Origin: a virus
Taxonomy: Duplodnaviria > Heunggongvirae > Uroviricota > Caudoviricetes
Virus record (IMG/VR): IMGVR_UViG_2534682222_000019
Span: 1 to 7,169 of that record
Strand: one strand, 5' to 3'
Length of the DNA: 7,169 nt
The notes under the pieces: model-generated
What the model was told of the DNA's origin: nothing
The model's database searches: none
Seen by the model: the letters and a program-made list of their open reading frames with translations, nothing else
Shown here: positions 2,856-7,169 of the stretch, in pieces
Numbering within the stretch: the stretch's first letter is position 1
Layout: every line of letters starts with the position of its first letter
Program-made: the position numbers and the translations under genes

Positions 2856-3074
2856 TCAAAGAGAGAGCGCCACCTGTCCTGATTTCATTGGATGCGGCTG
2901 AACCGGATTTGACTCTTTTGGCGTTGCAATCGAACGAACAAAAGTTTCATGGGTAACAAAAGTATGGCTGCAGTTAATGTTCTGGCACTGGTTGTAACGC
3001 TCTTTGGTCAATGAAGATACCTGAAAACTGCTGCGAGTATGGGCGGCACTTCCACACAGTGGGCAAATCATCAT
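2856..3074 (-). CDS. ogr: Ogr/Delta-family zinc-finger late-gene transcriptional activator (72 aa)
   Basis: Start trimmed from the six-frame ORF to the ATG at 3074, which has a GGGGAG Shine-Dalgarno about 10 nt upstream. The product MMICPLCGSAAHTRSS...KERYNQCQNINCSHTF carries the Ogr-type C-X2-C-X22-C-X4-C zinc-binding motif and has the same length as P2 Ogr. Confidence 0.9.
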   Translation of the reverse strand: MMICPLCGSAAHTRSSFQVSSLTKERYNQCQNINCSHTFVTHETFVRSIATPKESNPVQPHPMKSGQVALSL

Positions 3075-3111
3075 TTTTCGAGTTCTCCCCATTTTTGCTA
3101 AATTCACAATA

Positions 3112-3138
3112 ATGATACCGCATTATTCCATTTTGCAA
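3112..3138 (-). promoter_or_regulatory. Candidate sigma70 promoter for ogr
   Basis: On the minus strand, TTGCAA (plus 3133-3138) and TATCAT (plus 3112-3117) lie in the 90-nt gap between L and ogr. The 15-nt spacing is suboptimal. This is a weak, sequence-only call. Confidence 0.2.
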
Positions 3139-3164
3139 ACTTAAAAGTTCTCCATTGCGAAGAA

Positions 3165-3704
3165 TCATTCCATTTCGAAATCATCAATCCTCACTTCAAG
3201 CTCCAGACTGGTTGTAAAACCGTTATCGGGGCTGACGGTATGCGTCAGAGTCGTAATGGTCCATTCCGCATCATCTACCCGGCTGATGGCCCAGCGGGCG
3301 TCACGCCATAAATCACCGCTGGCTTCCGCCAGTTCCTCGCCCCGCTTCACACCGGATGCCGTGGTGTCATAGTCCTGGTAACGTTCGTTGAGCATGGCGC
3401 GTGCCCAGCAGTAAACCGCGTTGAAATAGTGCTGAATGCGCTCACTTTTGCCGTCCAGCTGTTCCGCCGGAACCTCTGCCAGCGAGGCATACCCCAGCAT
3501 CTGCTGGCGTCTGCGAAACTCATACAGCTCTGCGTTGACCTCCGAAATTGCCGACAGCGCAACCTGCTTTAAACGCGGCTGCGTCACCGTGCCGTCAGTG
3601 CGCATGACACTGCGAAACTCCGACAGGTCCACATCAGGCCAGAACGGCGTATTTCTGATGATTTCCGCCTGTTCCGGTGCCTGTTCTGGCGCAACAAACT
3701 TCAT
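3165..3704 (-). CDS. L: P2 gpL-like head completion/stabilisation protein (179 aa)
   Basis: Start trimmed to the ATG at 3704, preceded by AGGAG 8 nt upstream; the six-frame ORF extends further to a non-ATG start. Similar to remembered P2 gpL, including the ELWRDARWAI and NTPFWPDVD motifs. Confidence 0.85.
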   Translation of the reverse strand: MKFVAPEQAPEQAEIIRNTPFWPDVDLSEFRSVMRTDGTVTQPRLKQVALSAISEVNAELYEFRRRQQMLGYASLAEVPAEQLDGKSERIQHYFNAVYCWARAMLNERYQDYDTTASGVKRGEELAEASGDLWRDARWAISRVDDAEWTITTLTHTVSPDNGFTTSLELEVRIDDFEME

Positions 3705-3799
3705 GCTGCTTTCTCCTGAAATAGAGGGCGGTGGACGGGGTTTTGATGTGGCAGTGCCTTTCGCCACCCCGTGCCGCCCGTGCGCGGGGGCACGTTCTG

Positions 3800-4450
3800 T
3801 CAGCGGCTGTCATTGCGCAGTCTGCGCTCCAGCTGCTGTTTGTCTTTTTTCACGCCACAGCGGGGATCGAGCTGTAACGCATGGTTGAGATGATTAAGGG
3901 CAGACGCCGGATTGCTTTCACTCAGGACCGCGCCAATCGCTTTATGCAGACGCGCCCGTGACTGGTCCGGCATATCCAGACCGTCTGTCAGCTCCAGCGT
4001 CTGCAGCAACAGATCGGCATCAAAGCCGGTGGTGGCAAGCATTGCGCTCTGCGCGGCGTCTGCCATTTCCTCTGCCAGCACGGTCTGCACGTTGCGGTTA
4101 CCCAGCGGCATCACCCAGCCATGACGCAGGGCATGACGCCCGATCTCCAGCGCTCCGGCATAATCTCCGGCATCAATGCGCCACAGCATCACGTACATCA
4201 GCACGTCATCCTGTTGAGCGCCTCCGGCAGCCAGGACACCCTCTGCCCAGGCGGCGTACTTCGGCAGCAGCTCCACCTTGATTTCCGCTTTTTTGACCGT
4301 GGACTGAACGCCCTTGAGACGGCGGCGGTCTTCCGCCAGTTGCAGCAGCATCAGGTCATAGCCCGATGCGTGGCGAACACTGCCGCCCTCGCGGGCGGCC
4401 TGTTCAGCCTGAACGCGCAGGCGATGCTGCCGTGCGGGACTCAGGCTCAT
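3800..4450 (-). CDS. M: P2 gpM-like terminase small (endonuclease/DNA-recognition) subunit (216 aa)
   Basis: ATG at 4450 with GGAG 9 nt upstream; the start lies 3 nt after the N stop. Similar to remembered P2 gpM (LLPKY...GAQDD.LM.VMLWR.D.GD.AGALEI...LDMPD). Confidence 0.85.
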   Translation of the reverse strand: MSLSPARQHRLRVQAEQAAREGGSVRHASGYDLMLLQLAEDRRRLKGVQSTVKKAEIKVELLPKYAAWAEGVLAAGGAQQDDVLMYVMLWRIDAGDYAGALEIGRHALRHGWVMPLGNRNVQTVLAEEMADAAQSAMLATTGFDADLLLQTLELTDGLDMPDQSRARLHKAIGAVLSESNPASALNHLNHALQLDPRCGVKKDKQQLERRLRNDSR

Positions 4451-4453
4451 GGA

Positions 4454-5512
4454 TTACGCTCCGGTTTCGGCTGCGGCGGCGCTGAAATCACCAATCTGGA
4501 TGTTTTCCACCAGTGCGGCGCAGCGGTAGTCCTCAACCACATAGGCTTCGTTAACGGATTCAAAGTTTTCAATCCGGTCACGTTTCGGGTTGTCGATAAC
4601 TGAACGGCGGCGGGTGTCTTCCTGCCAGTAGATGGACAGGTTATCCAGACGGGTGATCAGCAGCGCATTCGGCGGGAAGAACGGCGCACGCACGGCCTGC
4701 AGGCCACCCATGCGTTTCTGACTGATGATCATATCGGCAGCCAGTTTTTCACTGTTTTCCTGCTCTTTGTTGACCAGCGGGAAATACTTGTCAGACAGCA
4801 GTTCACGACCGCAAATCACCACCAGATCGTCATCGTCCTGATAGACCACGTCGATAAGCTCATTAACGGCATCCATCACCACGGCGTCCAGGTTGGCATA
4901 TTCGCCACCTTTCCCGACTTTCACCGCACCCGGTGTGGTTTCACCGCCCGTGGTGGTGCTGCCCATGACGTGATCCGGTGCATCCTCACGGATTTTCTGC
5001 AGCCAGCCTTTATTCACATCCTGCAGTAACGGGTTTTCGCTACGGTTGGAGGTTTTCGCACGCTTCACGCCGTTAAAGCCAATCATGATGCGGTCCAGTG
5101 CCTGACGTTTCACGATGGCGTCACGGATACGCACCTGAAAATCCTGAAACTTCGCCCACAGGTCCAGCTTCGCGTAGGTCAGTACCGTGTCAAAGTTGGT
5201 CTGCTCGCATTTATATTCCACATCGACCATCAGCGTCGGATCGACAGGTTCACGCTCTTTCGCGGTGGTATCAGTGGTTCCGGCAATGGTGCTGCCAACT
5301 CCCAACCCCAGCAGCTGACCGGACTGCTCAGTCACTGGCGTGACGTTAATCAGCGTCAGGAAAGCGGCGGACTGCTGGATCTGGTCTTCCAATGTCTGCT
5401 GCACGGACGGCTCTACGGTGAACTTGCTGGACAGTTCTTCAACTGCCACACCGTTCAGACGCGCCAGTTGCTGCAGGTAAGCGTTAAAAGCAAAGCGGGT
5501 ATTCTTCTTCAT
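4454..5512 (-). CDS. N: P2 gpN-like major capsid protein (352 aa)
   Basis: ATG at 5512 and TAA stop at 4454-4456. Similar to remembered P2 gpN along its whole length (TRFAFNAYL...KFTVEPSV...MIGFNGVKRA...GKGGEYANLDA.VMDA...KYFP.VNKEQ.NSE.LAAD.IISQKR...NLSIY...VEDY...GDFS). Confidence 0.92.
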   Translation of the reverse strand: MKKNTRFAFNAYLQQLARLNGVAVEELSSKFTVEPSVQQTLEDQIQQSAAFLTLINVTPVTEQSGQLLGLGVGSTIAGTTDTTAKEREPVDPTLMVDVEYKCEQTNFDTVLTYAKLDLWAKFQDFQVRIRDAIVKRQALDRIMIGFNGVKRAKTSNRSENPLLQDVNKGWLQKIREDAPDHVMGSTTTGGETTPGAVKVGKGGEYANLDAVVMDAVNELIDVVYQDDDDLVVICGRELLSDKYFPLVNKEQENSEKLAADMIISQKRMGGLQAVRAPFFPPNALLITRLDNLSIYWQEDTRRRSVIDNPKRDRIENFESVNEAYVVEDYRCAALVENIQIGDFSAAAAETGA

Positions 5513-5539
5513 CAGGTTTTGTGCTCCATCAGCAATTGG

Positions 5540-6025
5540 TCAGAGTGTCAGCGGGGGCGTCAACCACACAAACCGCAGGCGGGGAAAGCCTTCATTCAAG
5601 GTTGTAGGTTTGTGCCATGAACACCACACTGACACCCGCAGATCTCGATCCCCGTCGGCAGGCCATGCTGCTGTACTTTCAGGGATACCGCGTACCGCAC
5701 CTGCAGCAACACGCCCGATCTCTGCGGTTGCACTCATGACGTAATGTGGCAGTTTCTCTTTTGCCACCTCATTAATCGGTACGCATGGCAGGCAGTGAAT
5801 CTGAGCCAGAAAACCATCTACCAGCGTTGAATCTTCAGTCAGATCGGTAAGCAGCCAGATTTCTGGTGCGGTTAATAAATGAGGTTGCGCTGGGTTCAAC
5901 TTGTTCCGCAGAATCTGCACATTCATGCCAGCACGTTCTGCCAGTTGCACCAGGTTGTGGCGCAATGCGAATGCACGACAGGCTTCATCAAAATGTGGAT
6001 GTTTGGAAACTTGGTAATCAAACAT
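5540..6025 (-). CDS. cII: Phage 186 CII-like (CP76 family) regulatory protein (161 aa)
   Basis: Start trimmed from a TTG to the ATG at 6025, with GAGG upstream. The N-terminal roughly 120 aa ([24 protein letters not shown]...[25 protein letters not shown]...) match the 186 CII / CP76 family as recalled. The C-terminal roughly 40 aa look atypical and overlap the cos-like sequence. Confidence 0.8.
5567..5614. other. cos-like core (AGGCGGGGAAAGC, 5577-5589) inside an 8-bp inverted repeat (CACAAACC 5567-5574 / GGTTTGTG 5607-5614)
   Basis: The 13-mer is identical to the central part of the 19-nt P2/P4 cohesive end as I remember it (GGCGAGGCGGGGAAAGCAC). The flanking inverted repeat is read directly from the sequence. 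It sits at the cII 3' end, upstream of N. Confidence 0.4.
5611..5628 (-). promoter_or_regulatory. TGT-N12-ACA dyad; possible Ogr-responsive late-promoter element upstream of N
   Basis: The minus strand reads TGTGGTGTTCATGGCACA, about 100 nt upstream of the N start. This fits the P2 late-promoter dyad consensus, but the motif is short and could occur by chance. Confidence 0.2.
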
Positions 6026-6057
6026 GGTCAATGCCTCTGATGTATTTCAGAATCGAA

Positions 6058-6279
6058 CTAATTAAGGTTTAGATTGCATTCTGAAAGCGCATCAACGGTC
6101 ATTGCTGCTATGTTGATCATCACTTTTTCGCGTTTTTTATCTTTGCGCAGACGGTGACGGATAAGGCGTCCATCAGCCAACATGTCATTGATGGTATCGA
6201 TGGATAGCCCTGTCAGCTCGCTATAGCGTTCAATAGTCACATGGGGGGTGGTAAGAGTGATTGAAATGTTAGGTCTCAT
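6058..6279 (-). CDS. Cox/Apl-like small helix-turn-helix excisionase/regulator (73 aa)
   Basis: ATG at 6279 with GAGG upstream. It is the first gene of the leftward operon and sits immediately upstream of cII, as apl does in 186. The HTH segment [24 protein letters not shown] resembles the P2 Cox DNA-binding region. Confidence 0.65.
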
Positions 6280-6404
6280 GATGCAACATTCCTCGTTTAA
6301 TGATGATTAATCAGGACGAATACGGATCGTTTGTATTTTGTGAACACCATAAACATACGATCGCACAGTGAAATCGTAAAGATAAAAGTTCACTTGGAGT
6401 GACC
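6280..6404. promoter_or_regulatory. Immunity switch region between the divergent cox/apl-cII operon and cI
   Basis: 125-bp AT-rich intergenic region between divergently transcribed regulators. It contains a perfect 10-bp palindrome TGATTAATCA (6304-6313), a CGATCG palindrome (6358-6363) and an imperfect direct repeat ATACGGATCG / ATACGATCG (6320-6329 and 6355-6363). Exact promoters were not resolved. Confidence 0.5.
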
Positions 6405-6974
6405 ATGAATTTGGAGAAAGGCGGACGAGGCGCTATAGAGCGCATGGTAGAAGCTTATGGATTCAAGACTCGACAGGCGTTGTGCGATCATTTAGGAATC
6501 TCTAAAAGTACACTCGCCACACGCTACATGCGTGACTCATTCCCAGCAGAATGGGTAATCCAGTGCGCCCTTGAAACAGGCACCTCGCTTAATTGGCTCA
6601 CAACCGGGCATGGTTCAAAGCAAACTTCAGGTAATACAAATACTATGGAAGTTGCTAAATATGTATTATCTGATGGGGCCTTGTGTGAAGACGGTTTTTA
6701 TATTTTCGATAGAGAATTTCTACCGTCGGCATTCAAGAATCTTTTTGTAATCACAGATAATAATTCTGAATTTATTTGTGATAAGGAATTTGATGATATA
6801 CGTGATGGTAAATGGGTAATAAGTATTGATGGCGAAATAACGATCCGTGACATTACTCGTTTACCCGGTGGAAGAATCTTCGTCGAGGGTGGAAACAGAG
6901 CCTTCGAGTGCAAGATAGAAGATGTTGAAATAATTGGGAAAATTATAAGTTTAACAATTAAGTACGTTAGGTAA
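6405..6974 (+). CDS. cI: Phage 186-type CI repressor (189 aa)
   Basis: Start trimmed from a GTG to the ATG at 6405, with GGAG 5 nt upstream. The N-terminal HTH domain (EAYGF...L..HLGISKSTLATRY.R...P....IQCALETGTSLNWLTTG) matches the 186 CI family as recalled, and the length is close to the 192 aa of 186 CI. Confidence 0.85.
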   Translation: MNLEKGGRGAIERMVEAYGFKTRQALCDHLGISKSTLATRYMRDSFPAEWVIQCALETGTSLNWLTTGHGSKQTSGNTNTMEVAKYVLSDGALCEDGFYIFDREFLPSAFKNLFVITDNNSEFICDKEFDDIRDGKWVISIDGEITIRDITRLPGGRIFVEGGNRAFECKIEDVEIIGKIISLTIKYVR

Positions 6975-6989
6975 TACCGGGAGGAAACT

Positions 6990-7169
6990 ATGCTTGGTAA
7001 GGTATTTTTTGTGGTTTTATCATGCTCTTTGTTATTAAACCCACTAACTACCTATGCTAAAAATTATCCTTGTTCTGGGAAAAAGGGAGGTGTCTCTCAC
7101 TGTACCTCCGATGGAAAGTTCGTTTGCAATGATGGAACTATTAGTAAATCAAAAAAAATCTGGGTAATG
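6990..7169 (+). CDS. 5' part of an ORF for a small signal-peptide-bearing, Cys-containing protein (truncated by window end)
   Basis: ATG at 6990 with GGGAGG 5 nt upstream and no stop before the window end. The product [23 protein letters not shown]|[26 protein letters not shown]... has a typical N-terminal signal peptide. No family was recognised. Confidence 0.5.

Follow-up and report, generated by a model that had tools for sequence, protein, structure and literature searches.

An IS1-interrupted YdcA-family gene directly behind the cI repressor gene of a 186-like prophage remnant

In the P2-family Vibrio phage K139, the lysogenic operon runs PL, cI, orf2, glo, int and encodes Glo, a soluble periplasmic superinfection-exclusion protein with a signal peptide, which is made in lysogens (PMC3952083). 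Glo counts 137 aa with one Cys pair at most, and orf2 stands between cI and its gene. The cI-int interval has been described as a hotspot in K139-like Vibrio phages (PMC9122126) and, more globally, P2-like phages carry variable lysogeny-expressed cargo and defence genes in this interval, on the int-to-primase side (Rousset et al., 2022, PMC9122126; PMC13586616). On bacterial chromosomes, YdcA is a predicted periplasmic protein of 57 aa and of unknown function (PMC11340327); ydcA has been reported as acid-induced through YdcI, and E. coli W becomes sensitive to 3-hydroxypropionate when ydcA is deleted (PMC7642389). [quoted passage not shown]

The locus considered here lies at the very end of a window of 7,169 nucleotides, i.e. 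the whole stretch of viral DNA that was analysed, where a short ORF follows the cI repressor gene. Like glo, this ORF is coded 3' of the repressor gene as part of the lysogenic operon, and K139 Glo is the closest functional precedent by position; homology between the two was nonetheless rejected, as hhalign gave a probability of 8% with the signal peptides alone being aligned. With the hotspots of P2-like phages, the locus has in common a place for lysogeny-expressed cargo between cI and int, but YdcA is no recognised defence gene and is a near-constant companion of this type of cI rather than a variable insert. The reading favoured here, with a probability of roughly three in four, is that the ORF is a YdcA gene cut by IS1, which would be lysogeny cargo coding for an exported, disulfide-pinned peptide, its role in the envelope being a guess. 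The surrounding prophage is a heavily deleted, dead remnant sitting between the host genes ybjL and rcdA, in which only ogr, a gpL/gpD chimera, gpM, gpN abutting a truncated cII, apl, cI, ydcA', IS1 and int remain (Table 1); the deleted-prophage region described corresponds to positions 2856-6279 of the window.

Table 1. Coordinates of the features discussed, in positions of the window
Feature	Position	Strand	Remark
ogr	2856-3107	minus	
gpL/gpD chimera	3165-3767	minus	
Capsid gene gpN	4454-5512	minus	
Truncated cII fusion ORF	5540-6031	minus	Abuts gpN
CI repressor gene, 186/HP1-type	6405-6974	plus	189 aa from the ATG at 6405; GTG at 6399 also open
Shine-Dalgarno-like GGGAGG	6979-6984	plus	5 nt 5' of the ATG; direct reading
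Predicted Sec-type signal peptide, codons 1-23	6990-7058	plus	Hydropathy and conserved Ala at -1; predicted cleavage after Ala23
Native part of the mature YdcA domain	7059-7162	plus	34 residues and 2 nt of codon 58; three of the four conserved Cys
A8 homopolymer within the ORF	7151-7158	plus	Rare frameshift alleles in other genomes
9-bp IS1 target-site duplication, left copy, AAAAATCTG	7154-7162	plus	Repeated after IS1 in contig L003; single copy in the intact relative L001
IS1 start GGTAATG	7163-7169	plus	Junction relative to intact relatives; sequence of L003

Judged by its sequence, the ORF is a YdcA-family gene that had already been catalogued, with its function uncharacterised in the catalogues, and its identity and anatomy can be regarded as secure. 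A profile search, which the first-pass annotation had proposed as a check, marks it as a genuine gene, since the window fragment reaches 108.4 bits and the intact allele 116.1 bits with the NCBIfam model NF007463 (cut-off 93). PHROG 6000, a family of unknown function, is matched as well (4.6e-34, and 4e-33 for the native part in the window), the precomputed Pfam label on the exact 64-aa product is PF27300 (YdcA), and RefSeq names the intact product 'YdcA family protein' (WP_001321204.1). In a local copy of Pfam-A older than PF27300, no family was found at E ≤ 1 except a chance match to GULLO2, and a literature search with 'YdcA family', PF27300 or the protein accession found nothing. As in E. 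coli YdcA (b1419 region; PF27300 / PRK10040 / PHROG 6000), a signal peptide is followed by a four-Cys core, and the core common to both proteins reads PCSGxKGG(V/I)SHC...GKFVCNDG(S/T)xSxSKKxC, the prophage protein being 57% identical to the chromosomal one (cybB-ydcA-ydcI context). The two differ in that the prophage subfamily matches NF007463 and not the K-12 equivalog NF007462 (68 bits, below the cut-off of 118), and in that the prophage gene sits in a phage lysogeny operon, the window copy having moreover lost the fourth Cys to IS1.

In an alignment of 38 homologues, nine columns are invariant, eleven more are nearly so, and the mature core with its four conserved Cys is nearly fixed. Over the 32 codons of the core, two E. 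coli prophage lineages differ at 18 synonymous and 2 non-synonymous positions (pS = 0.86, pN = 0.03), and the mature core is thus under very strong purifying selection. Searching 1.84 billion representative sequences with the family profile retrieved 466 clusters at 50% identity; the species-level loci belong to Enterobacterales, Pasteurellaceae, Moraxella, Acinetobacter, Neisseria, Comamonas, Rhizobium and others, with members on Acinetobacter and Rhizobium plasmids as well as in phages of Moraxella, Acinetobacter, Pseudomonas and Haemophilus. Besides the short members, some betaproteobacterial proteins of about 101-162 aa (P0056, P0057, P0060-P0062 and P0227) exhibit an extra Cys-rich C-terminal tail, the motif of which, C-x-C...C-x-GPRGG-x-(Y/F)C, echoes a motif of the YdcA core, and P0079-P0081 are tandem repeats of the entire domain. 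Two further relationships were considered and dropped. One was a resemblance to a circularly permuted DUF3761, for which hmmscan at E ≤ 1 gave no support. The other was the match to the lpg1681 family, which was too weak (NCBIfam E of about 0.06-0.1), lpg1681 itself being described as a protein with two transmembrane helices (PMC6598767).

Regarding the layout of the ORF, most of what the first-pass annotation had read in the letters holds, namely a strong ribosome-binding site, a position 15 nt after the cI stop in the orientation of the repressor, a signal peptide, a mature segment rich in Lys, Cys and Gly, and a composition richer in AT than that of the capsid genes. By direct reading, the cI stop codon TAA occupies 6972-6974 and the ATG starts at 6990 on the same strand, with the GGGAGG motif in the gap between them, and the Lys, Cys and Gly residues can be read from the translation. 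The ORF is in frame with cI, TAA and five codons in a shared frame making up the passage from stop to start (6972-6992), probably without consequence. The GC content amounts to 35% in the ORF, 41% in cI, 55% in the capsid gene and 50% in the whole window. The product of the upstream gene matches Pfam Phage_CI_repr (2.8e-33) and Phage_CI_C (8.7e-27) and is labelled 'phage repressor protein CI' in annotated relatives. Since neither a terminator-like nor a promoter-like site was detected in the gap separating cI from the ORF, expression of the latter from the lysogenic promoter would be the simplest reading; a search of Rfam over 6000-7169 returned no family.

The 60 codons of the ORF that lie within the window divide into a predicted signal-peptide part of 23 residues and a mature part of 37 residues. 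Nine-residue hydropathy windows peak at 2.5-2.7 across residues 5-16, and the T-Y-A that comes next is consistent with the -3/-1 rule and with cleavage by signal peptidase I; in the alignment of homologues, the Ala at -1 is conserved in at least 90% of the sequences, with the hydrophobic region free to vary. The product thus appears to possess the N-terminal cleavable signal peptide of its family. With about 8 Lys and 1 Arg for 2 Asp, the mature peptide has a pI of about 9.5 and a net charge of about +6 to +7.

The last seven nucleotides of the window do not belong to the gene. The native sequence ends at 7162, and 7163-7169 are the first 7 nt of a 768-bp IS1, as the contig L003 allows to establish, where the ORF runs into IS1 with a flanking duplication. 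Contigs L003 and L005, reached via the fusion protein specific to the deleted prophage, are 100% identical to the whole window, and the order in L003 is ORF, IS1, original tail of the ORF, then integrase. In this contig, positions 8096-8863 form a 768-bp element with AAAAATCTG on either side, which exhibits the terminal inverted repeats, insA, insB and 9-bp duplication of an IS1; gene calls therein are DDE_Tnp_IS1, Zn_ribbon_InsA and HTH_Tnp_IS1, and DNA matching the element carries the RefSeq labels 'IS1-like element', IS1A or IS1B. Through the insertion, codon 58 reads TGG (Trp) instead of TGT (Cys), and the last six native codons, CTKNSR, are replaced by WVMTPTY, so that the product becomes a 64-aa protein ending in ...KKIWVMTPTY*, the frame stopping 4 codons past the edge of the window. 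Of the four Cys characteristic of the family (C28, C38, C46 and C58), the window allele has only the first three, whereas the ancestral allele, WP_001321204.1, retains all of them. As the near-invariant C58 was replaced through IS1, the window copy is a disrupted member of the family and, judging from the loss of this one conserved Cys, most likely an inactive relic.

The intact gene, as found for instance in CFSAN061762 and BLR(DE3), counts 63 codons and ends in ...SKKICTKNSR*. The first-pass annotation had taken the ORF to continue past the window, whereas the native gene is not a long ORF, and had counted an end within a few codons against its own reading; the frame does end that early (64 codons here, 63 natively), but this size is natural for the family. 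Nor does the ORF occupy the place of the integrase, as had also been proposed, since int is still present, 186 nt 3' of the ORF and followed by the host gene rcdA in intact relatives, and after IS1 in L003. In the intact relative L001, a sigma-70-like site (TTGACA-17-AAAAAT, 10/12 matches) is found at 8016-8044, about 25 nt before the integrase start; from this near-consensus site, the integrase may have a promoter of its own besides read-through from cI-ydcA. The intact allele is present in BL21 and other E. coli B strains. In the form of this prophage that E. coli B carries (BLR(DE3), L002, 1647-3695), a reverse transcriptase of the retron St85 family and its effector stand beside portal and terminase genes.

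With an 870-nt query running up to the window edge, matches were obtained in 658 complete E. coli genomes and, among the matches listed, every E. coli alignment ends at 7162, seven bases before the end of the query. The ORF-IS1 junction occurs in none of 5426 complete E. coli genomes; the IS1 allele was found on 71 draft contigs named E. coli and the intact allele on more than 1000. Besides IS1, a run of eight A affects the same place, as in the variants P0002 and P0004 the frame shifts after SKSKK, at this run. The A8 run overlaps the AT-rich IS1 target AAAAATCTG (7151-7162 for both together), and this coincidence of a frameshift site with an insertion target gives the tiny gene a fragile spot.

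As to the position behind cI, ydcA is again found between cI and int in E. coli, Klebsiella, Yersinia and Hafnia, an additional cargo gene being present at some of these loci, and cI together with this ORF is present in 648 of the 5426 complete E. coli genomes. In Haemophilus phages HP2 and S2, an unannotated family member of 60 aa lies directly 3' of cI, its ATG overlapping the cI stop as TAATG, with orf1(S) and int coming next. In related phages, the interval between cI and int serves as a slot for cargo and for candidate or known defence genes. E. coli and Klebsiella relatives have a KAP NTPase inserted 3' of ydcA, which matches PADLOC PDC-S20 (E = 1e-171; L009-L013, 4198-5529), an uncharacterised 347-aa gene follows ydcA in Hafnia, and in other 186-like phages the ydcA slot is filled by an uncharacterised gene or by a PD-Lambda-1 homologue (E = 3e-120 in L017, 3085-4761). 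In PADLOC-DB 2.0, no defence model matches YdcA itself at E ≤ 0.01, in contrast to the neighbouring cargo genes of relatives. A 186/HP1-type cI stands directly upstream in 8 of the 80 species-level loci, the remainder, about 70, being in other contexts; since most members are not next to cI, YdcA is not confined to phages, and it does not have to be a factor of exclusion.

No conserved partner gene was found downstream of ydcA, the genes at this place in HP2, Hafnia, Klebsiella phage 4LV2017, Herbaspirillum and Acinetobacter being mutually unrelated. A two-gene system made of ydcA and the KAP NTPase was rejected, because the NTPase is missing at many ydcA loci and lies 3' of int in Yersinia. 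A shared downstream neighbour was encountered only in a Moraxella phage and a Moraxella chromosome. This membrane-anchored protein, with a region rich in Glu, Lys and Ala, is encoded in phage Mcat17 and in the M. bovoculi chromosome (L007, 4126-4578; L020, 3686-4384) with N-termini about 55% identical, and together with ydcA it may form a two-gene cassette specific to that genus.

At the structural level, the AlphaFold model is of fair quality, with a mean pLDDT of 77 that rises to 88-90 in the core, and its sole meaningful Foldseek neighbour is chain AN of 7MUC/7MUD (probability 0.98, 38% identity), i.e. Dis2 (Lpg0823) of the Legionella Dot/Icm T4SS; against viral structures (BFVD), Foldseek returned nothing below E = 0.9. 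The Dis2 chain is also the only PDB sequence match of the family profile (E = 4e-5, but no better than E = 0.036 with a profile restricted to the mature region), hhalign gives the YdcA-Dis2 pair a probability of 80%, and a Dis2-like metagenomic protein bears the precomputed label PF27300. Each lobe of Dis2 contains the motif CCSKMGGINYC...GRLVCNNGFYS, which is like the YdcA core, and the likeness would extend to a disulfide-pinned fold in the periplasm, close to the outer membrane. The two differ in that Dis2 has two lobes and ten Cys forming five disulfides in 124 aa and is a T4SS part encoded in a Dot/Icm genome, whereas YdcA has a single lobe and four Cys, and its neighbours here are phage genes with no T4SS genes nearby. 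Models and profiles together give a mixed picture, and a relationship between YdcA and Dis2 seems probable but is not established.

Put together, these elements allow a course of events to be proposed for the intact gene. The ydcA gene would be transcribed together with cI from the lysogenic promoter, and YdcA would by virtue of this co-transcription be made in lysogens; the precursor would be exported via Sec and cut after Ala23, releasing into the periplasm a strongly basic mature peptide of 40 residues with two disulfides. Export, disulfides and co-transcription are what we infer from the sequence, and the proposal of the first-pass annotation that the gene is lysogeny-expressed cargo appears reasonable on the same footing. 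As a best guess, drawing on the likeness to Dis2, on the slot shared with Glo and on the 3-hydroxypropionate phenotype of chromosomal ydcA, the intact protein might work within the envelope, close to the periplasmic side of the outer membrane, and might dock there as a small adaptor on a conserved envelope component. The lysogen might then gain either exclusion of incoming DNA or phage in the manner of Glo, or tolerance of envelope or acid stress in the manner of chromosomal ydcA; the biological role, be it exclusion or envelope-stress tolerance, is a guess by analogy.

Several other explanations have to be weighed against this cargo reading. That the ORF is a chance frame or a non-coding spacer between cI and int could be argued from its shortness, its AT-richness and its treatment in annotations, where it is absent in HP2 and S2 and a 'hypothetical protein' in many RefSeq records, but the excess of synonymous over non-synonymous differences refutes this, the curated family model is passed, the profile finds its clusters across Proteobacteria, and the region has no Rfam match, which altogether leaves the idea a probability close to nil. 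A lipoprotein-type exclusion protein comparable to Cor or Llp, anchored through Cys12, is scarcely credible either: residues 8-12, VVLSC, superficially look like a lipobox, yet only 7 hydrophobic residues separate Lys4 from Cys12, the hydrophobic stretch goes on past this Cys, this Cys is either missing from close homologues or preceded in them by Ile, Val or Phe, and the conserved cleavage motif is of the Ala-x-Ala type at residue 23. The lipoprotein reading was accordingly rejected, the pattern [LVI][ASTVI][GAS]C failing and Cys12 being unconserved in the alignment.

The possibility that the cargo serves host fitness, the prophage copy being a periplasmic stress protein for acid or organic-acid tolerance like that of chromosomal ydcA and making the lysogen fitter, deserves more attention, although it is considered doubtful. 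It agrees with the identity to chromosomal YdcA, with the sensitivity of E. coli W to 3-hydroxypropionate upon ydcA loss and the YdcI-linked acid induction (PMC7642389), and with a family that is mostly chromosomal or plasmid-borne rather than phage-borne; the 3-hydroxypropionate phenotype is however a single report without mechanism, anti-phage genes occupy the cI-int slot of relatives, and a copy is already present on the host chromosome, so that a second one would add little unless dosage or timing matters. Decidedly less probable is a nucleic-acid-directed module, in which the basic domain would bind DNA or position nucleases in the periplasm and thereby hinder DNA entering by phage infection, conjugation or transformation. 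Five of the 49 long members fuse the domain to nucleases of three unrelated families (Endonuclease_NS in three, SNase in one and PLDc_2 in one), the mature peptide is strongly charged, and naturally transformable genera such as Haemophilus, Moraxella, Acinetobacter and Neisseria are among the carriers, but these fusions are rare metagenomic singletons in which the domain could equally serve as a localisation tag, the invariant residues (Cys, Gly, Ser, Phe and Asp) have the look of structural ones, and some members, e.g. P0079, do not share the basic charge. More speculative still, and to be taken as a long shot, is the proposal that the YdcA mini-proteins are single-lobe relatives of Dis2, i.e. 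a widespread periplasmic docking module that is carried by mobile elements and binds outer-membrane lipoprotein or OmpA-like complexes. Where P2-family prophages, from those of E. coli to those of Haemophilus, encode it behind cI, this module would form a soluble barrier in the periplasm against incoming DNA.

Coming back to the reading of an IS1-cut cargo gene, the gene is an ordinary and already known one, and this copy is probably dead. As an annotated small gene broken by a common insertion sequence in a dead prophage, the copy in the window matters little. The family as a whole is of greater interest, with a core of 32 residues almost frozen by selection, carried by phages, plasmids and chromosomes across Proteobacteria and retained immediately after the repressor gene in P2-family prophages whose hosts are distant from one another. 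As BL21 and the other E. coli B strains have the intact allele, a role in lysogens is easily testable. YdcA possibly shares its fold with a T4SS component that was thought to be without relatives and, if it did act as a docking module that bars incoming DNA, superinfection-exclusion or anti-uptake factors would gain a new class.
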